Shown in pieces: positions 1-64,000 of a DNA stretch of 64,000 nucleotides. Source of the DNA: an archaeon UBA583 (GTDB taxonomy: Archaea > Nanobdellota > Nanobdellia > Woesearchaeales > UBA583); NCBI GenBank assembly GCA_002506365.1, contig DAXK01000025.1:34692-98691 (forward strand), given 5' to 3'. Positions within the stretch are counted from its first letter, which is position 1, and every line of letters starts with the position of its first letter. The notes below the pieces were generated by a model, which saw only the letters and a program-made list of their open reading frames with translations, had not been told where the DNA came from and ran no database searches. Made by a program: the position numbers and the translations under genes.

Positions 1-2679
1 ATTTAAACTCCAGATAATATTTTCATTGACATCATCACGATTTTTCATAGACATATGATTTGTATATCCGTTTTCATAACCAAATATAGCTCTATTTTCA
101 ATATGGGATAATGAATCATATAAATCTAAACCATCTTGATAGTTTAAAATTCTATCATTTGGGAAACCATTATATAATCTAATTTTATTAACTTCCACAT
201 TTGAAAAATCTATCATAGTATTTGGATTTGTTGCTAAATTATTATAAAAATTCATTAAGTTTAATGAAATTTTATCATGTCCAAAACCCAAAAATATTTT
301 TACCCAACCTGAGCCACCTAAACCTAGAATATTCGCATAATCACTAATCTCCAAATGAGTTAAATTACGTGTATTATTAATAAAATTTATAGCGTAATCT
401 CCAGCATTTAAATTTTCAACATTATTAATATAATATGGATGTACTGGACTACTTCTTGAACCTCTAGTGAAATCAGTATCATTGTTCAAAGTACTAGGAC
501 ATGCAATCCCGAAGAACTTGTCAACAGGCAACTCCGACATATCTACACTTTCCCAAGCACCATCAATTAAAACTTTTCCAGCATTATTTTTCCCATCTTT
601 TGAATACTCATTCAAACTAGATAAAGCAGCACGGCACCCATTACTGTGTCCAACATAATTAATTTGTGGTTTTTCTGAATAATATTGAACTGCGGCAATA
701 CTCGCAGGCCAGTGTGAATTAACTAAATCTCCATAAGTATAATCAGGTGAAGTTTCACTCTCAATATCAGGTCCACCAGTCATCTCCATAAGCCAAACAT
801 TTTGTCCATCTTGAACTAATTCTCTCCCAAAATCTTCAAAAGTATCAATATTACTAAATAAACCTCCACTCATAACAACTGGAGATTTATTTAATTCAAA
901 AGCATCAACAAACCCTTTAGAGTAGTCAATATTTAAATTCTTTAATCTTAATTGAACTTCTTGTTCATAAGATGTGTCTGCTGAATTAGTTTTAACAGTC
1001 TTAACACTTACATCAATATTATTACCATATAAAATGTTCTTAACTTGTGAAGCTAATAATTCATCATTGTTTAAAAAATTTTGACCCAGTCTATCATTAT
1101 TTAAAAAATCTACAACTGACAATCCCAATTTATCATAATTATCAATAATATCTAACTTTGGATTATTCGCAAACATCCAATCCATTTTTTTATTAACTAA
1201 CCTTTTAACTCCAGCAACACTACCAGGAATTCCATTTGAAGCAATTAAAATTAATGAGTTTTTAAATAAAACAGAAGAGGTGTATGGTTCCGTATAATCT
1301 TCATTAATAATTTTTAAGTTTTCTGATTCCTTCATTAAATTTTTCTTAGTTATAGCATTATCACCAACAACTAAATTATAATTAGCATCAAGTCTATTTG
1401 AAACAAGATTAAAATTACTATCTAAATAATCATAAACTACTTTATTAAGTTCGGGATAATTATCTCCAAAATCCACATCAACATATAAATTTAGATTATC
1501 ATAAGTAACCGGCAGTAATAAATAATTATTATTATAATCTTTTTCAAAAACATCTCCTGTAGGATTTATTTGTACATGAAAAAATTCCCCAACTTCAAGA
1601 TTTTTAAATTCGGTAATATTGATTTCATTAATTCCAAATTTAATATTTCTACCAATATGTTTTTCATCAATAATAATTCCTTTAACATTTTGTCTTTTAA
1701 TATTAAAAAATATATTTTCACCAATATTTTCTGAATTAACTTCAAACTTAAAAATATTATTTTCAGTATACACATTATTTGAGTCTATTGATAAATCCGC
1801 ATAACTTGAGATTTTAACTTTTTTCCAATTTTCTGGTGGTTCATAACCAGACTCACAAATTAATTCATTATCATTATTTACTACACAAAGAGTATTTGGC
1901 ATTCCTAAATTAACTGATTTAATATTTTCGGCAGGAAGTGTGTGAGGAAAATTACAATCCAAATTCCCATTTGTCATAATCCCACACACATTCTGACTTC
2001 TACCAACTGAAATTGAATTTAGTTTTTTATTTGTTACATTATATTTTTGTCTAGCATTATTGGACCTATGCCAACAAAAAGCATCATCATAAACATTTAC
2101 TGTACAAAAATAACTATTTTTAGTATCAACTGATTTAACTTTTTCCCAGTTTTTTGGAATATTAAAAAAGTCACCGTTGGAATCCCAACATGTAAGTTTA
2201 TTATTTAAATCAATTACGCAAGTATCAATAACTCCAGCCACAACACTTTGAATATTTGTCTCAAATCCTTGCGGAATTATTGTACTTACTCCACCTGAAA
2301 AACACCCTAACTCATCATTGAGATTAACAATACAAAACAAATAATGACCTACACTCACAGATTTAACATTCTTTTTCCAATAATCAGGAATATCAAAAGA
2401 TAATCTCCCATTCCCACCCCTAGGTCCAATATCATCACAATATAAAGAATTATCGTTTTTAACTACACAAGCAAAACCGTCCCAAACTGAAACTTCTTTA
2501 ACATTAGAATTAAATCCAGGTGGAAATTGTTCTAAAGAAGAACTTCCAGCCCAACACCCAAGTTCATCATTTTGGTTAATTGAACAAACAATTTGAATCC
2601 CTGACGAAGATTCACCAGATGAACCAGAAGCATTACCAACACCAAAAAACATTACAAAAAATACAAAAATGAAACTCAT
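1..2679 (-). CDS. Secreted multidomain protein, C-terminus cut by the window edge: signal peptide, seven Cys-paired RCC1-like propeller blades, a middle region, and a lipase-type alpha/beta hydrolase
   Basis: Absent from the ORF track because no stop lies inside the window. My reverse translation from the ATG at 2679-2677 stays open to base 1 (893 codons). It begins MSFIFVFFVMFFGVGNASG. It has seven ~50-aa units such as VKSVSVGHYLFCIVNLNDELGC. It then shows VGHSNGC (GxSxG elbow, about 636-650), followed by NDRIL and NHMSM as candidate Asp and His. Confidence 0.7.
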   Translation of the reverse strand, partial: MSFIFVFFVMFFGVGNASGSSGESSSGIQIVCSINQNDELGCWAGSSSLEQFPPGFNSNVKEVSVWDGFACVVKNDNSLYCDDIGPRGGNGRLSFDIPDYWKKNVKSVSVGHYLFCIVNLNDELGCFSGGVSTIIPQGFETNIQSVVAGVIDTCVIDLNNKLTCWDSNGDFFNIPKNWEKVKSVDTKNSYFCTVNVYDDAFCWHRSNNARQKYNVTNKKLNSISVGRSQNVCGIMTNGNLDCNFPHTLPAENIKSVNLGMPNTLCVVNNDNELICESGYEPPENWKKVKISSYADLSIDSNNVYTENNIFKFEVNSENIGENIFFNIKRQNVKGIIIDEKHIGRNIKFGINEINITEFKNLEVGEFFHVQINPTGDVFEKDYNNNYLLLPVTYDNLNLYVDVDFGDNYPELNKVVYDYLDSNFNLVSNRLDANYNLVVGDNAITKKNLMKESENLKIINEDYTEPYTSSVLFKNSLILIASNGIPGSVAGVKRLVNKKMDWMFANNPKLDIIDNYDKLGLSVVDFLNNDRLGQNFLNNDELLASQVKNILYGNNIDVSVKTVKTNSADTSYEQEVQLRLKNLNIDYSKGFVDAFELNKSPVVMSGGLFSNIDTFEDFGRELVQDGQNVWLMEMTGGPDIESETSPDYTYGDLVNSHWPASIAAVQYYSEKPQINYVGHSNGCRAALSSLNEYSKDGKNNAGKVLIDGAWESVDMSELPVDKFFGIACPSTLNNDTDFTRGSRSSPVHPYYINNVENLNAGDYAINFINNTRNLTHLEISDYANILGLGGSGWVKIFLGFGHDKISLNLMNFYNNLATNPNTMIDFSNVEVNKIRLYNGFPNDRILNYQDGLDLYDSLSHIENRAIFGYENGYTNHMSMKNRDDVNENIIWSLN

Positions 2680-2905
2680 TCTTTTAATTAAATTTAAATT
2701 TAATCCTTTTAACATAACACCAACACTCCAAAAAACTTTTATAAATAATTGTATAAATTAACAAATTAAATCAAAATAGGAGTTTATAAAACAATTTAAT
2801 AAACAAAACATTTGAAAATCAAAGTAAATTAAATTAAACAACTCCAATCATAATTTAACAATTACAATTCAAATTTATAAATAAAATAATTATTAAATAT
2901 ATTAA

Positions 2906-5900
2906 ATGGATTTAAAAAAATCTCTCAAAATAATATTTATGCTAACTTTATTTTTTCAAGTAAGTTACGCATTTGATTTAGATTCATTAATTAACTCTTA
3001 CGATTATACTTTTGAAAACGGAGTGGTTAATGTAGTACAAACGCAAGATAGTTTAATTGATACAAATCAAAATAACCTAACAGATAAATTAGAATTTAAT
3101 ATTGAAACAAATATATTTAATTCTAATTTAACAAATTACACAATAAGTGTGATATTAGATAATAAAAATTATATCTCCGAATATGTGAATTTAGAATCGA
3201 CTTTTTCAAAGATTCAAATTCCAACATATTTATTAAATGAAAATCAATATAATTATACAATTGAAATTAAAAATCAATTTAATTCAGTTGTATTTAGAAT
3301 GGATAATTATCAAACACAAATTTTAGATAATTACGAAACAGGATTTAATTTATATTCAACAATAGACAAATTAAATTTAGAAAATGAAATTCAATTCGAC
3401 TTAGAGTTTTCACAAATTCCAGAATTTGAAAATAAACAAGTTACTTTATTTTTAGAATACAATAACCAAACTTTAATTTATTCAAAAGAAGTTTTATTTG
3501 AAAATCCAAATCAATTAATTTCATTTAATATTCCAAAAGAAAATATTTTCCAAACAAAACACACAGGGAAATTTAAGTTAAAATCAATACTAGTAGATAA
3601 TAAAAGAATTTATTTAGATAATTATACAACAGATAGTTATTCATACATTGAATTTACAAATAAAAGTTTTATCACATCACAAGATTACTCTTTAGAAGAT
3701 TTAGATAATAATTCTTTATATGAAAAACTAAATATTAATTTTAACTTAAACATTGTTGAACAATCAAATTATGAAATAACATTTTCATTATTTGACTCAA
3801 ACAATAATTTTGTAAATACTTATTCAATTCAAAATGAATTAACAAATACAAATAATATTTTAACTCACTCATTTGACGGTGAAGAATTTTACAGAACTAA
3901 AATTAATGGACCATACACAATTAAAAATATTTATTTAAAACAAATAAATCAAAATTTAAATACTTCAGAAGTTATTGATGTTTCAAAAAATGAAATTACA
4001 ACTGAGCAAATTTCATACTTACAATTTGAAAAACCAACATTACCTGAATTAAATACTAAATTAATTACAACATTTGATGAATTAACAAATCAAACACAAT
4101 TAATTGTAATTGTAAATAACAATGGAACTTTCCCAGCATTTAATTTTAATTTAGAATTATTTAACTCAAAAGAATTTAGTTTCTCAGATAATATAATGTT
4201 TTTAAATACTGGTGAATCCATTAATTATTCATTTATATTTAACAATACAAATGGGTCTGAATTATATACATCATTAATTGATTCAAATAACTTTGTTGAT
4301 GAACTAAATGAAGAAAACAATCAAAACCAAATTAAAGGAATTGAACAAATTATTGACCAATCAGTTTGTGGACTAGAAAAATTACCAAACAAATTGATTT
4401 TTATAGATAGTAATTGTAATCCAATTATAAACGCTAGAGTAAATCTTCTAAAAGAAACTGGAACATATATTAAATATCTAAGAACAGACTCAAACGGAAT
4501 TGTTGACTTTTCAAATGATATATCACTAAATGGAAATAAATTCCAAATTGACCACAATGGAGCTAAATTTACAACAGAAATAAATAGTTTATTCAATGGT
4601 TCAATAATCCAATCTAAAGCATATTCATTAAAAGTTCTAGATAACAATAATGAACCAATTAAAAATGCGAGAATTAATCTCCTAAAAGAAACTGGGACAT
4701 ACATTAAATATCTAAGAACAAATGAAAATGGAACAGTTACTTTCCAAGTTGTACCAAACGCAAATATGAAGTTCCAAATTGATTACAACGGAGCCAAATA
4801 TTCAATGCCAGTAAACAACGATAATCAAATTAAAATTAATACAAAAGGATATTCACTAAAAGTTCTAGATAACAATAATGGACCAATTTCAAATGCAAGA
4901 GTAAATCTCCTAAAGGAATCAGGAACATATATTAAATATCTAAGAACAGATTCAAACGGAATTGTAACTTTCCAAAATGTACCAAATGCAAAACAACAAT
5001 TTCAAGTTGATTATAACGGAGCTAAATATTCAATGTATGTAAACAATGACACTCAAATTACAATTAATACTAAAGCATACTCTCTAAAAGTTTTAGATAA
5101 TAATAATGAACCAATTAATAATGTAAGAGTAAATCTCCTAAAAGAATCAGGAACATACATTAAATATCTAAGAACAGATTCAAACGGAATTGTAACTTTC
5201 CAAAATGTACCAAATGCAAAACAACAATTTCAAATTGATTACAACGGAGCTAAATATTCGATGTATGTAAACAATGACACTCAAATTACAATTAATACTA
5301 AAGCATACTCCCTAAAAGTTTTAGATAACAATAACAAACCAATTTCAAATGCGAGAGTAAATCTCCTAAAAGAAGCTGGAACATATATTAAATATTTAAG
5401 AACAGACACAAATGGAATTGTCACGTTTCAAAATGTGCCTAATGCAAAACAAAAATTCCAAATTGACCACAACGGAGCTAAATATTCAATACCAGTAAAT
5501 AATGACACTCAAATTACATTAAACACATTAGGATATTCATTAAAAGTTTTAGATAACAATAATGAACCAATTAACAATGTAAGAGTAAACTTACTAAAAG
5601 AATCTGGAACTTACATCAAATATTTAAGAACAGATTCAAATGGAGTTGTAACTTTCCAAAATGTACCAAATGCAAAACAACAATTTCAAATTGACCATAA
5701 TGGAGCAAAATATTCAATACCTGTAAATAACAATTCACAAATCATTATGAATACAAAGGGTTATTCATTAAAAGTTTTAGATAACAATAATGAACCAATT
5801 AATAATGTAAGAGTGAATTTACTAAAAGAGTCTGGGACTTACATCAAATATTTAAGAACAGATTCAAATGGAGTTGTAATTTTCCAAAATGTACCAAATG

Positions 5901-6484
5901 CAAAACAACAATTTCAAATTGACCACAATGGAGCAAAATATTCAATGCCAGTAAATAATGATACACAAATCACAATAAATACAAAAGCATATAGTTTGAA
6001 CCTAATTAATAGTCAAAACCTACCAATTAATAATGCTAGAGTAAATTTATTAAAATCATCAGGAACATACATCAAATACAAAAAAACAAATACAAATGGA
6101 ACAGTAATATTCCAAGTGGTACCAAATGCTAATCACAAATTCCAATTAGATTATAATGGAGATAAATATACTAGCCAATCAGTCTCAAACACAGAACCAA
6201 TTAGTGTTCAAACTTTTTCATTCGGAGGATTATTTGTTGATAGTTCATGTACTCCAACTGAAAATGTAAGATTTAATTTATTAAAAGAATCTGGAACATA
6301 TGTAAAAAATTTAAAAACTAATGGTTTAGGGGAAGGATCTTTTGAAGTTGTTCCAAATGCAAATATGAAAATTCAAGTTGACCATAATAGTCTTAAAGAA
6401 ACAACACAAGTATATTCAATTAATCAAAATACAAATTTAAATATTCAAACTTCACACAATTTAGGATGTTATAATAATTCTTAA
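2906..6484 (+). CDS. Secreted 1192-aa adhesin-like protein: signal peptide, CARDB-like segment, nine tandem carboxypeptidase-regulatory-like (prealbumin-fold) repeats
   Basis: ORF track. N-terminal hydrophobic signal IIFMLTLFFQVSYA. CARDB-like segment VNNNGTFPAFNFNLELFNS...DELNEENN. Repeat consensus YSLKVLDNNNEPINNVRVNLLKESGTYIKYLRTDSNGIVTFQNVPNAKQQFQIDYNGAKY. Confidence 0.85.
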   Translation: MDLKKSLKIIFMLTLFFQVSYAFDLDSLINSYDYTFENGVVNVVQTQDSLIDTNQNNLTDKLEFNIETNIFNSNLTNYTISVILDNKNYISEYVNLESTFSKIQIPTYLLNENQYNYTIEIKNQFNSVVFRMDNYQTQILDNYETGFNLYSTIDKLNLENEIQFDLEFSQIPEFENKQVTLFLEYNNQTLIYSKEVLFENPNQLISFNIPKENIFQTKHTGKFKLKSILVDNKRIYLDNYTTDSYSYIEFTNKSFITSQDYSLEDLDNNSLYEKLNINFNLNIVEQSNYEITFSLFDSNNNFVNTYSIQNELTNTNNILTHSFDGEEFYRTKINGPYTIKNIYLKQINQNLNTSEVIDVSKNEITTEQISYLQFEKPTLPELNTKLITTFDELTNQTQLIVIVNNNGTFPAFNFNLELFNSKEFSFSDNIMFLNTGESINYSFIFNNTNGSELYTSLIDSNNFVDELNEENNQNQIKGIEQIIDQSVCGLEKLPNKLIFIDSNCNPIINARVNLLKETGTYIKYLRTDSNGIVDFSNDISLNGNKFQIDHNGAKFTTEINSLFNGSIIQSKAYSLKVLDNNNEPIKNARINLLKETGTYIKYLRTNENGTVTFQVVPNANMKFQIDYNGAKYSMPVNNDNQIKINTKGYSLKVLDNNNGPISNARVNLLKESGTYIKYLRTDSNGIVTFQNVPNAKQQFQVDYNGAKYSMYVNNDTQITINTKAYSLKVLDNNNEPINNVRVNLLKESGTYIKYLRTDSNGIVTFQNVPNAKQQFQIDYNGAKYSMYVNNDTQITINTKAYSLKVLDNNNKPISNARVNLLKEAGTYIKYLRTDTNGIVTFQNVPNAKQKFQIDHNGAKYSIPVNNDTQITLNTLGYSLKVLDNNNEPINNVRVNLLKESGTYIKYLRTDSNGVVTFQNVPNAKQQFQIDHNGAKYSIPVNNNSQIIMNTKGYSLKVLDNNNEPINNVRVNLLKESGTYIKYLRTDSNGVVIFQNVPNAKQQFQIDHNGAKYSMPVNNDTQITINTKAYSLNLINSQNLPINNARVNLLKSSGTYIKYKKTNTNGTVIFQVVPNANHKFQLDYNGDKYTSQSVSNTEPISVQTFSFGGLFVDSSCTPTENVRFNLLKESGTYVKNLKTNGLGEGSFEVVPNANMKIQVDHNSLKETTQVYSINQNTNLNIQTSHNLGCYNNS
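4394..6481 (+). repeat. Nine in-frame tandem repeats of about 228 bp (76 aa) inside the 1192-aa gene
   Basis: I verified unit starts at 4622, 4850, 5078, 5306 and 5990, an exact 228-bp period. Units 3/4 and 6/7 are almost identical at nucleotide level over more than 100 nt. The first and last two units are diverged. Confidence 0.95.
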
Positions 6485-25614: not shown

Positions 25615-26169
25615 TTAATTAAATTTAATATTATACTTTTTCTCAAAAATATTAAAAACAAATTCATAAAAACTTTCATTATTTGGAACAAATTTATTCT
25701 CATTCTCAAAATAAAATCTTTTTAAATCAACTAACTTAATTTTTTCAAGTTTTGAAACTTCATCATTTAAAATAAAATTAAACTTATCTCCAAAAACAAA
25801 ATAAGTATGTCTAAATTCATTCTCAAACCAACCACAATTTAACTCTTGTTTAAACCTAAAAATAAATTCCTCACCCAATTCATCTTCGCTAAAATCTAAA
25901 CCAACTTCCTCAATACATTCCCTAACAGCTCCTTGACGACCACTCTCCCCAGTATCAACATGACCTCCAACACACACATCATACTTTCCAGGATGACGAA
26001 CATTATCTCCACGAACTTGAAAATACACATAACCATTTTCAATAACCCAAATATTTGCTGCTCTATGACATAAATTATTTTCATGTAAATCAAAATAATC
26101 TGTAGTTTTTCCAGTAGGTTTATTATTTTCATCAACAATATCAATATCTGCATAAACTTGTTTTTCCAT
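25615..26169 (-). CDS. Nudix hydrolase (IDI-1/ADP-ribose pyrophosphatase-like)
   Basis: Complete Nudix box GGHVDTGESGRQGAVRECIEEVGL. Confidence 0.85.
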   Translation of the reverse strand: MEKQVYADIDIVDENNKPTGKTTDYFDLHENNLCHRAANIWVIENGYVYFQVRGDNVRHPGKYDVCVGGHVDTGESGRQGAVRECIEEVGLDFSEDELGEEFIFRFKQELNCGWFENEFRHTYFVFGDKFNFILNDEVSKLEKIKLVDLKRFYFENENKFVPNNESFYEFVFNIFEKKYNIKFN

Positions 26170-55774: not shown

Positions 55775-55858
55775 ACTTTGTCAAATTTTAATTTGACAAT
55801 GGCTTAGATATTGTAAATTTCTTGACTTTGTCAAATTTTAATTTGACAATGGCTCAGA
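55775..55858. repeat. Hairpin-repeat locus 3: two near-identical 34-nt family units with a 50-bp period
   Basis: ACTTTGTCAAAT-TTTA-ATTTGACAATGGCTTAGA (55775-55808) and the same sequence with CTCAGA (55825-55858). Both have perfect 9-bp arms. Confidence 0.85.
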
Positions 55859-56382: not shown

Positions 56383-58698
56383 ATGACTAATAACCAATTC
56401 TTGTATCAAATTGATAAAAAAGAAACAAAAGATAACATTATTCTAACTAAATACTTTGTAGATGATAAATTCGACACAATTACTCAAAATGTTGAAATTC
56501 CTTATCAAATCTTAGCTAATAAGGATGATTTTAACAAATTAAATATAAATGCTGATAATATTATAGTAACACCTGCAAAATTAACGGACATAGATAACAA
56601 TGATGTAATCAAAATTCACGCTAATAGTAAAGAACTTTATGATTTTATCCTCTCTGAGCTAAAAGACATCAATTCTAAGGTATATGAACACGATTTGCCT
56701 ATTGAACATAAATATCTTATTGAAAATGATTTATCATTAGTTTCAAATAACAACTTTAAACCTACTTTAAAATATTTATCTGTTGATATTGAAACAATTG
56801 GACAAAAAGACGCCCAAGAAATAATAATGATTAGTTCTTTTAGTCAATTAGATAAAAAAATGTCTAAAGTTTATTGTGATATGAGTAAAATTACTAACTC
56901 AAAGCTATCAGAAGTTGAGAACCATAAATTTAAAGAATTTGAACTTGTTAAATGTGAAAATGAAGAAGATTTACTAATTAAATTTCAAAATGATTGTATA
57001 GAATTCTCTCCACAACTCCTAATCGGTTGGAATGTTATTGATTTTGATTTTAATATTATTAAACAACGTTTAAACACATTTGGTTTAGACTTTAAACTCT
57101 CTAAATTTACTGGAAATTGTAAATTAAGGCTCACAAATGATTTTTTTAGCCAGTCGACTATGACTTGTCCAGGAATTTTAGTTTTTGATATAATTCATGT
57201 ATTAAAAAAAAACTTCTACGAATTTGAAGATTTTAAACTAGATACTGTGGCAAAAGCAGTTTTAGGAGATAATAAAATTGACATTGAAGATGATTCTGCT
57301 CCAGACTCAATTGAAAATAAAATTCAAGCTATTGAAAATATGTTCAAAAAAGATCCTATAAAATTAATTGAATATAATTTTAAAGATTCATTACTTGTAT
57401 CAGAAATTGTTGAAAAACTTCACCTATTAGATTTAGTTTACAAAAGATCCATCTTAACCGGAACTCCTCTTGCTAAAGTAAAATCTCCTATAGCTACATT
57501 AGATATTATGTATCTAAAAGAACTTCATAAACAAAATAAAGTTGCAAACACAAACTGGAACTTTCAAAAATCACAACCAATTGAAGGAGCATTTGTAGTT
57601 GAACCAACTCAAGGATTTTATGAAGATGTTATGGTTCTCGACTTTAAATCATTATATCCTTCAGTTATGATGACATTTAATATTGACCCATTTACTCAAA
57701 ACAAAGGAACTCAAATCAAAGCTCCAAACGGTGCCACATTTTCAAATGAACCTGGAATTTTACCTAAACTAATATTAAAACTGTACAAAGAAAGAGATAT
57801 TGCAAAACAAGAAAAAGATGCTAATAAATCTCAAGCTCTTAAAATTACAATGAACTCATTCTACGGTGCTATGGCATCACCTAAATCAAGATATCACAAC
57901 TCCGAATTAGGTGAATCAATTACAGCTTTTGCAAGACACATTACAAAAACTGCAATTACAGTAACTGAAGATTTAGGACATAAAGTTGTATATGGAGATA
58001 CTGATTCCATTTTTGTAAAATTAAAAGACTTATCTCCAAAAGAAAAACTTGAAGTTAAAATTTCCGCTGGAAAAGTTTTAGAAAAAACATTAAACAAATA
58101 TTATGAAAATTGGATTACTAAAGAATTCAGACAAAAAAACTTTTTACAAATTGAATTTGAAAAAATGTATTCTAAATTTTTTATTGCAAGTAAAAAAAGA
58201 TATGTTGGATACGATGAATTTACTAAAAAAACACAATTTGTTGGAATGCAAGCAATTAGAGGTGACTGGACTGATATGGCAAAAGAATTCCAAATTAAAT
58301 TAATTAAATTAATATTTGATAATAAATCACATCAAGAAATTGAAAAATTCCTTTTAGACGAAATTTCAGACATTAAAAAAGGTTTATTTGATGACAAACT
58401 AATCTATACTAAAAAGATTGCTAAACCGCTCTCTGAATATACTAAAATCACTCCTCCTCACGTTAAAGCAGCTAAAGAAGTTCAAGGATTTTCAGGAAGA
58501 GTTGTAAAATACTATTTAACAAAAAATGGACCTAAACATATTTCACTTTTTGATATTAAAAAAGATGAATTGGACTATGACCACTATATTGAAAAACAAC
58601 TAAAAGGAGTCTCAGAAGAAATATTAAATTGTATTGGAATTAAATTTGATGAAGTAGTATTTAAGAAAAAACAAAAATCTCTTTCATCTTTTTTCTAA
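56383..58698 (+). CDS. polB: Family B DNA polymerase
   Basis: Exo I DIET, Exo II GWNVIDFDF, motif A DFKSLYPS, motif B KITMNSFYG, motif C YGDTDS. Confidence 0.95.
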   Translation: MTNNQFLYQIDKKETKDNIILTKYFVDDKFDTITQNVEIPYQILANKDDFNKLNINADNIIVTPAKLTDIDNNDVIKIHANSKELYDFILSELKDINSKVYEHDLPIEHKYLIENDLSLVSNNNFKPTLKYLSVDIETIGQKDAQEIIMISSFSQLDKKMSKVYCDMSKITNSKLSEVENHKFKEFELVKCENEEDLLIKFQNDCIEFSPQLLIGWNVIDFDFNIIKQRLNTFGLDFKLSKFTGNCKLRLTNDFFSQSTMTCPGILVFDIIHVLKKNFYEFEDFKLDTVAKAVLGDNKIDIEDDSAPDSIENKIQAIENMFKKDPIKLIEYNFKDSLLVSEIVEKLHLLDLVYKRSILTGTPLAKVKSPIATLDIMYLKELHKQNKVANTNWNFQKSQPIEGAFVVEPTQGFYEDVMVLDFKSLYPSVMMTFNIDPFTQNKGTQIKAPNGATFSNEPGILPKLILKLYKERDIAKQEKDANKSQALKITMNSFYGAMASPKSRYHNSELGESITAFARHITKTAITVTEDLGHKVVYGDTDSIFVKLKDLSPKEKLEVKISAGKVLEKTLNKYYENWITKEFRQKNFLQIEFEKMYSKFFIASKKRYVGYDEFTKKTQFVGMQAIRGDWTDMAKEFQIKLIKLIFDNKSHQEIEKFLLDEISDIKKGLFDDKLIYTKKIAKPLSEYTKITPPHVKAAKEVQGFSGRVVKYYLTKNGPKHISLFDIKKDELDYDHYIEKQLKGVSEEILNCIGIKFDEVVFKKKQKSLSSFF

Positions 58699-58784: not shown

Positions 58785-59432
58785 TTAATCTTTTTTATGT
58801 TCCTTTCTCATAAAATCCATCATACTATCATGAGAACTAGAATCCATCTTTTCACTTTTTAAACTCTCAAGTTCCTCACGCACATCAGTATACTCTTCTG
58901 GAGCAATCTTTGTAAATAAAGAAATAATTACATCATTATCAAAAATCCCACAATCGACACATCTATTCGCAAACCTCTCAATTTCAACCTTTTCATCAAA
59001 GCCAATCCGCACAATAAACCTCTTTAAAAAATCAATCGTAATTAAAGACAAATATCCTCCTGCTACCTCATACGCTTGTTTTTTATTTTCAAAATCATAT
59101 CTCTCAATCTCAAAAATATCAATTAAATAAGAAATAAAATCTTCTAAAATAACTCCAAACTCACTATTTAATCTATAATCTAAATACTCATCTGAGCTAA
59201 GCCTTAAAAATTCTTTAAAAGATGTAAATTTAACCATACTCATTGGAATAATTTTACCACAATAAATATCTTTTTTAACGGAATATTTACCCCTATTACG
59301 AGCTCCAGAACCATCTCCTAATTTCTTTGGTTTACGCTTTAAAGTTCGCCCATCTCTAACATAAATAGTCTCCCTCAAATACAAATATCCTCTAGATTCA
59401 GGCTTTTTAGTATTTTTTTTTTCCCACAACAT
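58785..59432 (-). CDS. Hypothetical 215-aa protein with a basic N-terminus
   Basis: ORF track. AAAGTTTATATAAG promoter-like element about 26 nt upstream. Confidence 0.45.
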   Translation of the reverse strand: MLWEKKNTKKPESRGYLYLRETIYVRDGRTLKRKPKKLGDGSGARNRGKYSVKKDIYCGKIIPMSMVKFTSFKEFLRLSSDEYLDYRLNSEFGVILEDFISYLIDIFEIERYDFENKKQAYEVAGGYLSLITIDFLKRFIVRIGFDEKVEIERFANRCVDCGIFDNDVIISLFTKIAPEEYTDVREELESLKSEKMDSSSHDSMMDFMRKEHKKD

Positions 59433-59597
59433 AAATTAAAAATAAATTTATCTTATATAAACTTTACCCACCTGTAAATAAAACATTCTTTATTCATCTT
59501 AATTAGTGAATAAATAATGTTTCACCAACTCTTGTATTGATGTGAAATTCAATTTACAAATACATTGGATTTAAATGAAAAATAAATTGATATTTTT

Positions 59598-60035
59598 TCA
59601 ATAAAATCTATCAATAAATGGTTTAATTTTATCTTTACACTTCTCAATCGAAAATACAAACTCATATTCATTAATCTCATCAATTCCTATCCACTCATAC
59701 CCTAAATGTTCAGATGATAAAACTGGTTTTCCTTTTTCAAATTCATAATTATCACAAAAAGATAAACCAAAAATAAAAGTAAATTCAGGTTTATTAGATG
59801 GATTAGCATAGTAATTAATTGTATGAATTTCATTTAAATTAATTCCTAATTCTTCAACCCCTTCTCGTTTTAAACCATCAATTGAATCCTCTCCAAAATC
59901 ATAACTCCCTCCAACAAAATCCCATAAATTAGCACTTTCAGATTTATAATCAGATCTTTTTAAAATTAAAATTTTTTTAGTTTCTTTATTATAAACAACA
60001 CACTTTTGAGCAAAATAAACATTCTTTAAAGCCAT
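59598..60035 (-). CDS. Nudix hydrolase
   Basis: Nudix box GGSYDFGEDSIDGLKREGVEELGI. Confidence 0.85.
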   Translation of the reverse strand: MALKNVYFAQKCVVYNKETKKILILKRSDYKSESANLWDFVGGSYDFGEDSIDGLKREGVEELGINLNEIHTINYYANPSNKPEFTFIFGLSFCDNYEFEKGKPVLSSEHLGYEWIGIDEINEYEFVFSIEKCKDKIKPFIDRFY

Positions 60036-60097
60036 ATAAAAATAATATAAATAATATCATATTTAAAATTTTATAACTTAACTAATTTAATTAAAAT

Positions 60098-60117
60098 TAC
60101 TCAAAATAATTTGAGTA
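60098..60117. promoter_or_regulatory. 20-bp palindrome in the divergent Nudix / wHTH-Nudix promoter region
   Basis: TACTCAAA-ATAA-TTTGAGTA. ATTTATAAAT follows 3 nt later and lies about 26 nt before the ATG at 60151. Confidence 0.65.
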
Positions 60118-60150
60118 GATATTTATAAATATTAAAATAATAAAAATAAT

Positions 60151-60867
60151 ATGATAAAAGAAAACTCAATTCAAATTGACATACTAAGAAAATTTAAACA
60201 CCACGAAAAATTAAAATATTCTCAAATCCATAACAAACAATTAGCATCAAGTTCTCAATTTGATTACCATTTAAAACAATTAATAATAAACCAATTAATT
60301 GAAAAATCAAAAGATGATTACTACATTTTAACATACAAAGGACTTCAACTAATCTCAGAAATTGATGGGACAGAAATTAAAATTAAAAAAAAACCATTTG
60401 TATGTGGCTTTTTACTAGCATATAATGAAAATGGAGAAATTCTACTAAATATTCGTAAAAAGCAACCTTTTCTTAATTTTTACAATGTTCCAGGTGGAAA
60501 AGTTGATCTTGGTGAAACCACAAAACAATGCGCTATAAGAGAATTTACTGAAGAAACTGGAATAGAATGTAAATCTGTAAAACTTAAAGCAATCTGTGAA
60601 AAATTAAGTTACAATGAAAATGAAGAATTAATTCACCACATTATAGGATATTTCTACACAACAAATAATTCATATGGAACTTTAGTTAAAGAAAATGATG
60701 AAGGGAAAAACGAATGGATAACTTTAAACAAATTAAAAAATAAATTAAAATTCCCCGAATTAGAATACTTAATACCAAAATTAATTGAAAATAATGATAA
60801 TATTTTAATTGAAAATTATAAAAGAATTGTAAAAAATAACATAATGAACTTTGAAATAATAAACTAA
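60151..60867 (+). CDS. Winged-helix DNA-binding domain fused to a Nudix hydrolase domain
   Basis: N-terminal IDILRKFKHHEKLKYSQIHNK...HLKQLIINQLIEK (wHTH pattern). Nudix box GGKVDLGETTKQCAIREFTEETGI. Confidence 0.75.
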   Translation: MIKENSIQIDILRKFKHHEKLKYSQIHNKQLASSSQFDYHLKQLIINQLIEKSKDDYYILTYKGLQLISEIDGTEIKIKKKPFVCGFLLAYNENGEILLNIRKKQPFLNFYNVPGGKVDLGETTKQCAIREFTEETGIECKSVKLKAICEKLSYNENEELIHHIIGYFYTTNNSYGTLVKENDEGKNEWITLNKLKNKLKFPELEYLIPKLIENNDNILIENYKRIVKNNIMNFEIIN

Positions 60868-60896
60868 AAATAAAAATAAATAATAAAAAAGTGGTT

Positions 60897-61394
60897 TTAA
60901 GCCACATCTAAAATTTTCTTTAAAGCAATAGATGAAATAACTGAACATGTAAAATAAGTCCCTAACCATCCAAATTGTGTAAACCCTAAATCCCAAAATT
61001 CTCCTAAATGACCATAATAAGTCTTAATAAAAAAAAATAAAAATAACATTGGAATCATTGTAATTAACATAATTTTTGGATTCATAGCATGTTTCATATT
61101 CTCTAAATTTTTTTTCATAATCTCAGACTGTAAAGCTTGCGCTTTCTTTGGGTCTTTTTTCATCATTTCTCGAACTTTCTTTTGTAACTTTTTCATATCA
61201 GCTCTTAAAGCTTTAATTTTTACTTGGTCTGATAAAAACTTATTAACTAAAGTTGTAAATAAAGCTCCAACTAATGCAATTAAAGCAATATCTAAAACTG
61301 GGCTAGATAAAAAAGGGGCAGTTTGCCCAATTAATGTAGGAATCACTGTATCATTAACAGCACCCACAATTGTTTCATTTAATGTTTGATTCAT
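60897..61394 (-). CDS. DUF106 / EMC3-TMCO1-like (archaeal Oxa1-superfamily) membrane insertase
   Basis: TM1, then a basic coiled-coil hairpin KIKALRADMKKLQKKVREMMKKDPKKAQALQSEIMKKNLENMK, then two more TM helices. Confidence 0.7.
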   Translation of the reverse strand: MNQTLNETIVGAVNDTVIPTLIGQTAPFLSSPVLDIALIALVGALFTTLVNKFLSDQVKIKALRADMKKLQKKVREMMKKDPKKAQALQSEIMKKNLENMKHAMNPKIMLITMIPMLFLFFFIKTYYGHLGEFWDLGFTQFGWLGTYFTCSVISSIALKKILDVA

Positions 61395-61444
61395 AACTAT
61401 TAATATTTAATTACATTTATAAAATTTAGTAACCTCTTAATTTT

Positions 61445-62116
61445 ATGAGATATTCAAGACAAGACGCCTTAAAACAATTACCAAACAATTTTTCTAAAAC
61501 AATCCACAATAAAAAATTAATTATCGTAGGATGTGGTGGAATTGGTTCACCATTATCTGAATTATTAGTAAGAGGAGGATTTCAACATTTAACATTATTA
61601 GATACAGATTTAGTTGATCAAACAAACCTTCAAAGACAAACATTTATTGAATCAGATGTTGGAACTCCAAAAACAACTGCTTTAAATCAAAGGCTAAACC
61701 AAATTGACTCAAAATCAAATATAAATATAATCAATGATACACTAAACTCTGAAAACATCAATCAAATTTGTAAAAATGCTGATTTAATATTAGATTGCAC
61801 AGATAATTTTGAAACAAGAATATTAATTAATCAATATTGTGAACAAAATAAAAAAGATTGGATTTATTCTGGAGCTGTAAAAACACAAATAATCTCTTGT
61901 TTATTTTTAGGAGAAACTAAATTATTCAAAAAAGTATTTCCAAAACCAATCCAAGATGAATCATGTTGTGAAGTTGGAGTATTAGCATCAACAACATTCG
62001 CCAGTGCAAGCTTAACATATAACCAAGTTTTAAAATATTTTTTAGGTCAAAAAGAACAAAATTTAATTAAACAAGACTTATGGAACAACCAACTTTTTTC
62101 AATTAAATTAAAATAA
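61445..62116 (+). CDS. E1-like ThiF/MoeB/UbaA-family adenylyltransferase (short form)
   Basis: RYSRQ, IVGCGGIGS nucleotide loop, LLDTDLVDQTNLQRQ, and CTDNFETR. Confidence 0.8.
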   Translation: MRYSRQDALKQLPNNFSKTIHNKKLIIVGCGGIGSPLSELLVRGGFQHLTLLDTDLVDQTNLQRQTFIESDVGTPKTTALNQRLNQIDSKSNINIINDTLNSENINQICKNADLILDCTDNFETRILINQYCEQNKKDWIYSGAVKTQIISCLFLGETKLFKKVFPKPIQDESCCEVGVLASTTFASASLTYNQVLKYFLGQKEQNLIKQDLWNNQLFSIKLK

Positions 62117-62195
62117 TTTTATTACTTTTTCAAAATTTCAACTAATTTTCACTACACACATTAAACACACAACAATTATATAACTTATATAAATA

Positions 62196-62214
62196 AAATA
62201 TACATTGTATATTT
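62196..62214. promoter_or_regulatory. 19-bp palindrome with an ATACATTGTAT core
   Basis: AAATATACA-T-TGTATATTT read directly. Confidence 0.6.
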
Positions 62215-62272
62215 AATGATTCTGGATACCTCAAGTCAGTAAATACTAAAAAAGATAAATAAAAACAATATA

Positions 62273-62293
62273 ATTAAATACATTGTATTTAAT
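62273..62293. promoter_or_regulatory. 21-bp perfect palindrome with the same core, overlapping or abutting the TATA region of the Nudix gene at 62318
   Basis: ATTAAATACA-T-TGTATTTAAT read directly. It ends 25 nt before the ATG. Confidence 0.65.
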
Positions 62294-62317
62294 AACATAT
62301 AAATTTTAAAATCAAAA

Positions 62318-62803
62318 ATGAATTCAAAAAATAAAAATAATCCAGAAAAAATAAATCAAAAAAATTCAAAATATGGAGAAAATGGATTTAGAAATATTTC
62401 AGCAGTTGTAATAATAAATAAAAATAATAAAAAATTACTATTCCAACAAAGACCAAAAGAAACCAAATGGAATCCAGATGTATGGGGATTTTTTGGAGGT
62501 AAATTTGAAAATAATGAAACTAAAGAACTTTGCGCGATTCGTGAAATAAAAGAAGAAACAAATCTAAATTTAAACATAAATAAATTAAAATATATTAATA
62601 TGTATATTTATGAAAATACTAATTGTTATTTTTTTTATTACTTTTTAGAAGAATCTGAACTAAAACATTTTAAACTACAGGAAGGACAAGACTTTTGCTG
62701 GAAATCATACCATCAAAGTTTAGAACTTGACTTTGGAACAGTAAAAAACTGGCAACTAAACTTTCTAAACAATGAAATTAAAAACATATTAAAAATTAAT
62801 TAA
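62318..62803 (+). CDS. Nudix hydrolase (variant box)
   Basis: GGKFENNETKELCAIREIKEETNL, with the box Gly replaced by Asn. Confidence 0.8.
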   Translation: MNSKNKNNPEKINQKNSKYGENGFRNISAVVIINKNNKKLLFQQRPKETKWNPDVWGFFGGKFENNETKELCAIREIKEETNLNLNINKLKYINMYIYENTNCYFFYYFLEESELKHFKLQEGQDFCWKSYHQSLELDFGTVKNWQLNFLNNEIKNILKIN

Positions 62804-63192
62804 ATAATTAATTAATTAATTAATTAACACATAACCAAACTACTCACAAATCTCAACTGTTTCATTATTTGAAAAATTAACTTCCCAGCACTTAAATTCA
62901 TAAGGTTACTCATTAAAATTTAAAACTATTAACATTACTCCTAAACTTAAAATAACTAAAATTACAATAATTATTTTTTCCATTCCACAAACAATCTAAT
63001 TTTATTACTTATTTAAACAAATGTTATACTTTAAATTAACCTAAAACTAATAAATTTAAAAATAATTCTTAATATGATTAAATTATTTAATCAAACTCAA
63101 ACAAAAAACACTTTTTTAATAAAATTAATATAATTATTTCAAACATAGAATAAAATACATCAAACATAACTTCATAACTTTGAGAATAAAAT

Positions 63193-63263
63193 AAAGTTTC
63201 ACATTGAAACTTTGTAAAATTCTTTGATTTTACAACAGATTAGGAATTCATCAAAATATTCTT
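63193..63263. repeat. Hairpin-repeat locus 4: small hairpin, one family unit with a compensated arm, and a second hairpin
   Basis: AAAGTTTCA-CAT-TGAAACTTT (63193-63213). ACTTTGTAAAAT-TCTTTG-ATTTTACAACAGATTAGGA (63209-63245). AGGAAT...ATTCTT (63242-63263). Confidence 0.7.
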
Positions 63264-63321
63264 AAATACTAAAATTACAACCTTAAATAAAAATTAATAG
63301 AAATAAAAAGAATAGATAAAT

Positions 63322-64000
63322 CTATTCAGTAATTTTTAAAATCATTTTTTGTTCCTTAGCAATCTTTACTAAAGAATCTCTAAACTTATCAAATAACTTT
63401 TGAGCTGACTTTAAATCATCGTGAGTAATTGTTACTGCAAACTCACCTGCAGCAGTATAAATAATTGAAACTTTATCATAATTTAAAGGTTTTAAAGACT
63501 CACTAATTGCATCTTTAATTAAAATTGATCCATTCCCCGCTGTTGACTTTAAAGAAAAATTTTCCTTAAACACAACTTCCTCAGGTTTAATTCTCTCATT
63601 AATAATTTTTAAAAATGCATCCTTTGTTTTTTGATCAATCTCAGTAAACATATCAAGTTTCTTATTATCAATCATAATATCATATAATGCATCATAAACT
63701 GTTTCATACTCCTCAAAAATTGGTTCATAAGTATTCTCAAATAAAGTATCCTTATCAGAACCTACTTCCTTTGCAACATCCATATAAATTCTCTCAGAAT
63801 ACTCTTCCTTTTTAATAGACTCTTGTTTATCCTTCATAACTTGAATTGGAACTCTTCTCAAAGAAACATCAATTCTATTTAATTTAGGGTCAACTCTTAA
63901 AACCTTACAAACAATAACTTTATTCTCAACAACATGATCTCTTAAATTTCTAATTCTTCCAGGTGCAATCTCTGAAATTGTTAAAACTCCTTCCTTTTCA
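63322..64000 (-). CDS. eif2a: Translation initiation factor aIF2 alpha subunit, N-terminus beyond the window
   Basis: The ORF track starts at an internal TTG. My translation stays open to the edge: ...EKEGVLTISEIAPGRIRNLRDHVVENKVIVCKVLRVDPKLNRIDVSLRRVPIQ (S1 domain), then the helical and alpha-beta domains. Confidence 0.85.
   Translation of the reverse strand, partial: EKEGVLTISEIAPGRIRNLRDHVVENKVIVCKVLRVDPKLNRIDVSLRRVPIQVMKDKQESIKKEEYSERIYMDVAKEVGSDKDTLFENTYEPIFEEYETVYDALYDIMIDNKKLDMFTEIDQKTKDAFLKIINERIKPEEVVFKENFSLKSTAGNGSILIKDAISESLKPLNYDKVSIIYTAAGEFAVTITHDDLKSAQKLFDKFRDSLVKIAKEQKMILKITE

Follow-up and report, generated by a model that had tools for sequence, protein, structure and literature searches.

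The DNA analysed here is a 64,000-nucleotide stretch of an archaeal contig (the window; A+T-rich, ∼25% G+C), taken from an assembly of 1.39 Mb that is 74% complete. It contains three Nudix genes within 3.2 kb, and the middle one, at 60151–60867, places a winged helix-turn-helix (wHTH) domain in front of its Nudix domain. Comparison with its relatives suggests, with a probability that we put at roughly two in three, that this wHTH-Nudix fusion is a one-component transcription factor that employs its Nudix domain as a sensor and acts on a predicted site in its own promoter. The gene is probably a member of an unpublished family of gene switches in archaea and bacteria with tiny genomes. The features concerned are the following.

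59598–60035, minus strand: NudA, predicted stand-alone Nudix hydrolase of 145 amino acids, divergent from the fusion gene (PF00293, E = 4.8e-13, 49.7 bits)
60036–60150: divergent control region of 115 bp, common to NudA and the fusion gene
60100–60115: predicted operator CTCAAAATAATTTGAG, the perfect palindrome reaching 60098–60117
60122–60130, plus strand: TATA-like box TTTATAAAT, with its centre 25 nt upstream of the ATG at 60151
60151–60867, plus strand: wHTH-Nudix fusion of 238 amino acids (Pfam DUF7347, HTH_45 and NUDIX, 61 bits for NUDIX)
62165–62295: conserved non-coding element with two palindromes
62318–62803, plus strand: NudC, predicted stand-alone Nudix hydrolase of 161 amino acids (PF00293, E = 7.4e-15, 55.6 bits)

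The N-terminal wHTH domain of the middle Nudix protein, proposed in a preliminary description of this DNA, is borne out by profile matches and by structure prediction. Residues 5–70 belong to the Pfam family DUF7347 (PF24038; 33.7 bits against a cut-off of 27.6) and also match HTH_45, and residues 89–208 match NUDIX. The AlphaFold model, built on 18 homologues, is confident (predicted local distance difference test, pLDDT, 88.8; predicted template-modelling score, pTM, 0.81) and has two domains, a wHTH at residues 1–71 (nt 60151–60363) and a MutT/MTH1-like Nudix fold at residues 83–212 (nt 60397–60786, with the Nudix box at nt 60496–60564), which are joined by a poorly defined linker (residues 72–82) and followed by a C-terminal beta-hairpin (residues 219–237). 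Only the Nudix half is matched by Foldseek, most closely to MTH1/NUDT1 (TM-score ∼0.77, normalized to the target) and to 3fk9, a MutT protein of B. halodurans; that search returned no solved structure with the two-domain arrangement. The N-terminal 81 residues bear a weak likeness to the DNA-binding domains of the DtxR-family proteins SloR and ScaR, and the best sequence matches of residues 83–237 are TIGR00586 (51.7 bits) and PDB entries 3fk9 and 1mut. The protein carries neither the marker of ADP-ribose (ADPR)-type enzymes, a proline at +15/16 after the box, nor the SQPWPFP array. With a pocket of MutT/MTH1 type in which the ADP-ribose and NADH markers are lacking, the likeliest ligand would be a nucleoside polyphosphate. 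The family alignment shows every canonical catalytic residue of the box to be present in the window fusion and its close clade, and with the box thus intact the protein probably also hydrolyzes its ligand.

Relatives of the fusion were sought with HMMER among 1.84 billion representative sequences, yielding 390 matches at E ≤ 1e-10; 135 of the best 150 are 200–260 amino acids long and match over nearly their full length, and distant members also match DUF7347. The distribution is patchy: 47 of the 401 genomes of the order, from 35 of its 257 genera, carry the fusion. Across this family the catalytic signature is frequently decayed. The residues E, RE and EE are all retained in only 53 of 136 sequences (the query and 135 full-length representatives) and in only 3 of 28 order-wide members, frequent variants being REXXEK and GWN...RD..EE, and the window fusion and its close clade belong to the minority having a fully canonical box. 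A retained fold with a decayed signature is what the authors of the NrtR study argued to be indicative of a sensor role (PMC2330246). Both features of the class of one-component regulators with a Nudix sensor are found here, in that the signature is not conserved across the family and a palindrome is conserved at its promoters, and this comparative evidence makes the regulatory role that had been suggested for the fusion probable.

The gene neighbourhoods of family members are varied. On a bacterial small-genome contig (locus L119; JGI 3300055049 contig Ga0556624_0000001, 1.1 Mb, 54% G+C, 1850–6426) that also encodes Mur ligase, Ddl, NusB and RNase III, an AAA_28 gene (NadR-type kinase-like domain) is translationally coupled to a wHTH-Nudix gene with an REXXEK box, and next come genes for a tRNA-synt_1_2+NUDIX protein and a further NUDIX protein. 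Another representative stands in an archaeal operon behind an HD/YfbR-like nucleotidase, and the operon partners of distant members comprise three proteins without a Pfam domain and one phosphoglycerate kinase. Tandemly duplicated wHTH-Nudix genes occur at L136 (G241:C1) and L137 (G244:C37), each copy with its own palindrome upstream. One homologue is already labelled ‘YjhB (NUDIX family)/predicted transcriptional regulator’ in IMG, and one full-length relative comes from a MAG assigned to Candidatus Woesearchaeota. A literature search found no publication on DUF7347 or on N-terminal wHTH-Nudix regulators in archaea or DPANN, and a Sulfolobus Nudix study reports that an HTH is absent from all four of its Nudix proteins.

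NudA and the fusion gene are indeed divergent around a palindrome-bearing region of 115 bp, as previously described. The perfect palindrome at 60098–60117 (TACTCAAA-ATAA-TTTGAGTA) includes the predicted operator, of the form CTCAA-N6-TTGAG, which ends 6 nt 5′ of the TATA box at approximately −36 from the start codon, over or beside the expected transcription factor B (TFB) recognition element (BRE). An alignment by eye of orthologous control regions shows conservation of the left half-site and of the TATA box. When 130 nt of upstream sequence are taken for every family gene or, in operons, for the leading gene, the motif [CG]TCAA-N6-TTGA[CG], always with a 6-nt spacer, appears in 31 of 46 regions. 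In a first set of 18 regions 11 contain it, located −51 to −57 relative to the start codon (−65 in the case of the bacterial operon), as compared with 0.017 regions predicted from shuffles of the same 18. Among 28 regions from 26 further loci, which represent other genera and families within the order, 20 match exactly and three more have one mismatch. Over both sets the position ranges from −46 to −61 and is mostly −52 to −54. The site stands before the first gene of an operon at L119 (GTCAAAAAAATTTGAC) and L120, and apparently at L126 and L143, while at L149 it is on the downstream side of the fusion and ahead of the following gene. In nearly all family loci a TATA-like box comes a few bases after the palindrome, and the constant spacing of site and TATA box to the ATG suggests an mRNA that is leaderless or nearly so.

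Within the 1.39-Mb genome the predicted operator is the only intergenic copy with an N6 spacer and, by a wide margin, the top match to a position weight matrix (PWM; 21.7 bits). Of the 47 fusion-bearing genomes, 23 contain the strict form CTCAAA-N4-TTTGAG, as against 86 of the 354 remaining genomes (odds ratio 3.0, p = 7.5e-4). A distant member, L017, has an altered recognition helix together with a different palindrome, AAAAGG-N6/7-CCTTTT, two copies of which occupy the equivalent place in a 120-bp divergent region common to the fusion and a stand-alone Nudix gene; this layout of divergent Nudix gene, operator, and fusion is seen independently at L017 and at L136. The conserved palindrome is accordingly a strong phylogenetic footprint of a predicted autoregulatory operator rather than proof of binding by the fusion. 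The earlier proposal that the fusion has sites both at 60098 and at 62196–62293 finds support in its first part, the palindrome at 60098 being the local copy of the family-wide promoter site, and none in its second, where the motif is a different one.

A second exact [CG]TCAA-N6-TTGA[CG] sequence (CTCAATTCAAATTGAC) is present at 60165–60180 in the coding region of the fusion, 65 bp away from the promoter site and 14 nt past the ATG, with a PWM score (17.4 bits) that shares second place genome-wide. Orthologues do not conserve this sequence, which is thus probably a chance occurrence.

In the proposed mechanism, a dimer of the fusion would bind the 16-bp palindrome, the half-site centres of which are one helical turn apart, and occupancy would set the synthesis of the fusion itself and possibly that of NudA, from whose gene the site is 65–80 bp upstream. 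Co-regulation of NudA from the predicted operator is possible; a closely related genome, G013, retains NudA without the operator site. Archaeal regulators can activate from sites immediately upstream of the BRE, and they repress from sites that overlap the BRE or the TATA box. Because the predicted operator abuts the expected BRE, either sign of regulation would fit, repression by exclusion of TFB or activation by its recruitment. A nucleotide-type ligand in the Nudix pocket would alter the affinity for DNA, and, given the intact box, a single protein would constitute a feedback loop in which a substrate controls the amount of its own hydrolase.

Several observations weigh against autoregulation by a Nudix sensor. 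The exact motif is missing from 15 of the 46 upstream regions, including those of the L011/L013/L014 subgroup and of L007 and L009, and the close orthologues L002 and L003 have one mismatch in the right half-site (TTTAAG). No second promoter site that would indicate a regulon emerged from genome-wide scans for exact matches, for matches with one mismatch, or with the PWM. The intact Nudix box of this member would suit a plain enzyme just as well, some other factor could bind a gene-specific promoter motif, and the genome contains a hairpin repeat with stems (TTGTCAAA/TTTGACAA) that resemble the operator half-sites. The fusion might indeed be a plain enzyme, in which the wHTH tethers a MutT/MTH1-like hydrolase to nucleic acid (at 5′ ends or caps, or for sanitizing near DNA) or mediates oligomerization, the palindrome being an ordinary promoter feature. 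This would account for the fully canonical box in the close clade, for best sequence and fold matches to the active NTP pyrophosphohydrolases MutT and MTH1, and for a genome with no second target promoter. Nevertheless, it is unlikely, as most family members have lost canonical catalytic residues and yet retain both the architecture and the palindrome, and a 16-bp dyad whose spacer and promoter position stay fixed, across families of the order and also in a bacterium, is what marks a specific DNA-binding dimer.

It is more doubtful still that the palindrome is a real operator of a different transcription factor, of which the wHTH-Nudix gene is merely a conserved target. Binding by the fusion is predicted from sequence comparison, and the strict motif is found in 24% of genomes without a detected fusion; however, this background is what chance predicts (by our own estimate, ∼0.13 strict motifs per A+T-rich genome of such a size), and the motif accompanies the gene across many genera of the order, into other archaeal lineages and a bacterial contig, operon arrangements included. 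Because the motif travels with the gene, and because it changes along with the recognition helix in L017, autoregulation is the simplest reading. The weakest alternative, to which we assign only a very small chance, is that the palindrome at 60098–60117 is one more promoter-side hairpin repeat, similar to repetitive extragenic palindromic (REP) sequences or miniature inverted-repeat transposable elements (MITEs), and not a protein-specific operator. The repeat family with the resembling stems (ACTTTGTCAAA-loop-TTTGACAAYG; 55775–55858, C1:51918, C42:70797) comprises four copies with variable loops of 7–9 nt, whereas the operator, with its strict spacer of 6 nt, is unique here and accompanies a single gene family across many genomes, the bacterial contig of 54% G+C among them.

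It likewise appears improbable, and to about the same degree as an operator belonging to another factor, that all three Nudix genes and the palindromes at 62196–62293 form one nucleotide-sanitizing or defence system under control of the fusion, which is close to the regulated sanitizing or signalling-nucleotide system envisaged in the preliminary description. Random placement brings three of the ten Nudix genes of this genome within 3.2 kb in 0.18% of simulations (p ∼0.002), the trio is syntenic in three metagenomic relatives (L001–L003), and a stand-alone Nudix gene lies beside the fusion in approximately six independent lineages. Yet most fusion loci, and as a rule the more distant ones, have no Nudix neighbour, two housekeeping genes stand between the fusion and NudC, and the palindromes are of two types, those near NudC (core ATACAWTGTAT) being a pair from a dispersed element that persists in G013, a genome without the fusion at this site and with another Nudix gene in place of NudC. 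A density of Nudix genes said to be striking for a reduced genome turns out to be typical: the ten genes above the Pfam cut-off in 1.39 Mb compare with counts of 1 to 22 in 40 relatives (median 9 within the genus, 6 elsewhere in the order). For this Woesearchaeota lineage, neither the three-gene cluster as such nor the number of Nudix genes is out of the ordinary. The other features of the region, and an unlinked fourth Nudix gene, are as follows.

25615–26169, minus strand: fourth Nudix gene, 184 amino acids, YfcD/IDI-like subfamily, unlinked to the cluster
56383–58698, plus strand: PolB
58785–59432, minus strand: conserved protein of 215 amino acids, no assigned function
60897–61394, minus strand: YidC/EMC3-like insertase (PF01956)
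61445–62116, plus strand: minimal ThiF/E1-like adenylyltransferase, 223 amino acids (PF00899)
62804–63321: gap of 518 bp between NudC and aIF2-alpha
63322 to the window end, minus strand: aIF2-alpha

Conservation of the trio is confined to the near relatives L001–L003, in which the fusions are 62–73% identical and the NudC orthologues 56–59% identical, and does not extend to G013 or to more distant genomes. Since L001–L003 share the whole synteny from PolB to aIF2-alpha, retention of the trio in them is weak evidence of functional linkage. NudA orthologues (48–66% identical) occur in L001, L002, and G013 and are absent from that position at more distant fusion loci. G013 is an equally close relative (PolB 86% and ThiF 84% identical), and there the fusion gene is absent, with no remnant, from a NudA–EMC3 gap of 318 bp, and a different Nudix protein of 128 amino acids occupies the position of NudC. 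The insertase and ThiF/E1-like genes between the fusion and NudC are housekeeping genes that are part of no Nudix function; they remain syntenic with the fusion in relatives down to 46–48% identity. As for the suggested role in defence, PADLOC reports only domain-level matches, in which a Nudix domain is linked generically to the candidate family PDC-S07 and ThiF to the E1 half of E1-E2 proteins. No protein set specific to an anti-phage system was found in the region, and its genes (PolB, YidC-like insertase, E1-like enzyme, aIF2-alpha) are those of the core genome.

The gap in G013 (L118, G013:C157, 4276–4593) contains the inverted repeats TTGTGAAAT-N6-ATTTCACAA and GTATGTCGAG-N14-CTCGACATAC, which may be hairpin-repeat insertions at the site of a deletion.

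The two palindromes upstream of NudC are present as described, with the core ATACATTGTAT at 62196–62214 (19 bp) and 62273–62293 (21 bp). They lie in an element composed of a TATA-like box (62185–62194), palindrome 1, a micro-open reading frame (62216–62242), and palindrome 2, which adjoins the NudC promoter. The micro-open reading frame has 8 codons (MILDTSSQ*) and is conserved as M-x-L-D-T-x-x-Q-stop, although this region could instead be a weak 4-bp hairpin. The block at 62165–62265 is 77–93% identical in four genomes, at least as conserved as adjacent coding DNA, with the NudC protein 56–59% identical in the same relatives; the copy of the element at NudC is ∼90% conserved across five genomes, and in L001 a compensatory change on both arms (GTACATTGTAC) preserves palindrome 2. 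The core ATACAWTGTAT occurs 13–14 times in the genome, mostly in intergenic positions and with extended arms. Pairs 78–88 bp apart and similar in layout are found at three loci (62165–62295 in the window, C27:39410/39498, and C36:56736/56824), about five copies are single, including C6:15190, C36:33434, C42:76455, and C48:8021, and at four sites an ATG follows the palindrome core by exactly 5 nt.

The element is intact in G013, with its different downstream Nudix gene, and because it is kept there without the fusion its palindromes are probably not sites of the fusion. With a motif of another kind belonging to a dispersed family, 62165–62295 is probably no operator of the fusion but a dispersed element on the promoter side of genes, or else a site for some other factor. 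A reading as small RNA finds no support: 62165–62295 has no Rfam match, scans of the window at gathering thresholds and of 59400–63400 at E ≤ 5 returned only three tRNAs, and the predicted RNA fold of 62190–62300 is no more stable than that of shuffled sequences (z = −1.07). The element resembles the dispersed palindromes known as REP or bacterial interspersed mosaic elements (BIMEs) in being intergenic, dispersed, and paired, in abutting promoters, and in having arms kept by compensatory change. It differs from them in its few copies, in the ∼90% conservation of its orthologous copy across species, and in containing the 8-codon micro-open reading frame; a mobilizing enzyme of the RAYT type, which accompanies REP/BIME palindromes, has not been identified, no search aimed at one having been made.

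The three clustered Nudix genes and the fourth at 25615–26169 are all present as open reading frames, and the four proteins score 39–62 bits against a Pfam NUDIX (PF00293) gathering cut-off of 21.1 bits, which places them in the Nudix superfamily. Their boxes are GSYDFGEDSIDGLKREGVEELGI, GKVDLGETTKQCAIREFTEETGI, GKFENNETKELCAIREIKEETNL (a Gly-to-Asn variant), and GHVDTGESGRQGAVRECIEEVGL. Relative to the signature GX5EX7REUXEEXGU there are two deviations, both at non-catalytic positions. The NudA box (residues 43–65) is intact except for U→G at the first hydrophobic position, and the G→N variant noted earlier in NudC (EETN for EETG) is real, with N or Y at this position in orthologues; the box of the fourth protein is canonical. 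The clustered genes, described earlier as paralogues, are not close ones. Each is nearer to a paralogue elsewhere in the genome (NudC to C46 and C43, NudA to C28 and C27, the fusion Nudix domain to C43), and recent tandem duplication is accordingly rejected.

The best-scoring NCBIfam models for the cluster proteins are of MutT type, and all fall below the equivalog cut-offs (TIGR00586/NF008044; fusion 51.7 against 97.9 bits, NudC 43.7 against 148, NudA 28.6 against 97.9). Because every such cut-off is missed, no substrate is assignable to the Nudix genes, and the subfamily markers downstream of the boxes gave no clear class assignment. NudA and NudC are best regarded as ordinary stand-alone hydrolases, predicted to belong to other Nudix subfamilies. 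The fourth protein does not classify as a type 1 isopentenyl diphosphate (IPP) isomerase, an enzyme recognized by its equivalog score and its catalytic Cys/Glu motifs: it scores below the equivalog cut-offs for that enzyme (43.7 against 127 bits and 17.7 against 105.8) and for YfcD (40.7 against 152), and has a canonical Nudix box instead.

The closest published system is NrtR. NrtR proteins have an N-terminal Nudix domain and a characteristic C-terminal wHTH, and the Nudix domain is homologous to ADP-ribose pyrophosphatases, with ADPR as effector; the Nudix-sensor regulators described in the same work of 2008 include Bacteroides AraR, BT0354 (PMC2330246). The domain order of the fusion, wHTH (1–71) then Nudix (83–212), is the reverse, as the preliminary description had stated. 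With this reversed order, and with a wHTH of the DUF7347/HTH_45 type, the fusion is not a member of the NrtR family, and the NrtR-type structure 2fml matches it within the Nudix core only. The two systems are alike in joining a Nudix-fold effector domain to a wHTH in one component, in a signature that is degenerate across the family although some members may keep hydrolase activity, and in palindromic operators at promoters that include the regulator's own (an operator being predicted for the fusion). In contrast to NrtR, the wHTH of the fusion is DtxR/MarR-like, its Nudix domain best matches MutT and MTH1 and not ADPRases, the family occurs in DPANN archaea and small-genome bacteria, the site lies beside an archaeal BRE and TATA box, and the locus includes no NAD-pathway genes. 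MutT and MTH1 share with residues 83–237 the closest sequence and fold similarity and a canonical Nudix box, and are unlike the fusion in that the latter falls below the 97.9-bit equivalog cut-off and has an additional N-terminal DNA-binding domain.

BirA is a bifunctional enzyme and repressor with an N-terminal HTH. The enterobacterial NadR likewise combines enzyme and repressor functions with an N-terminal HTH (PMC2330246). The fusion resembles both in having an N-terminal HTH together with a nucleotide-handling enzyme domain and, as proposed, in a ligand state that would govern binding to a palindromic operator. It differs in that the enzyme folds are unrelated and that NadR and BirA run biosynthetic regulons, whereas the visible target of the fusion would be its own promoter and perhaps NudA.

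More tentatively, and as a possibility well short of even odds, the wHTH-Nudix proteins may be single-protein sensors of nucleotide-pool quality that span two domains of life, occurring in DPANN archaea and in small-genome bacteria resembling the candidate phyla radiation (CPR). Intact members would sense and destroy one non-canonical or scavenged nucleotide and set their own level from a site beside the BRE and TATA box, and decayed members would be pure sensors driving neighbouring genes for an HD 5′-nucleotidase, an AAA_28 kinase, or Nudix proteins. Very few DPANN transcription factors have a predicted binding site, ligand class, and target. If the regulatory reading is correct, sensing by the Nudix fold would extend beyond NrtR to a reversed architecture, a MutT/MTH1-type pocket, and archaeal promoters, and one regulator family would be common to both great radiations of ultra-small, host-dependent organisms, which rely on scavenged nucleotides. 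The intact and decayed members of the family also represent a natural series for the transition from enzyme to sensor.

The protein of 215 amino acids encoded at 58785–59432 is the most persistent neighbour of the fusion in the distant relatives L004, L005, L007, and L008. It is basic and is kept across Nanoarchaeota/Woesearchaeota (63 clusters). Scans of Pfam, NCBIfam, and PADLOC returned no match to it, and its AlphaFold2 model (pLDDT 79.6), in which the N-terminal part is predicted to be beta-sheet and the C-terminal part helical, has no fold match in the PDB. The 518-bp gap at 62804–63321, between the convergent NudC and aIF2-alpha genes, may reflect gene loss; at the same position L001 has an open reading frame of 269 amino acids, and L002 has two, of 131 and 74 amino acids.

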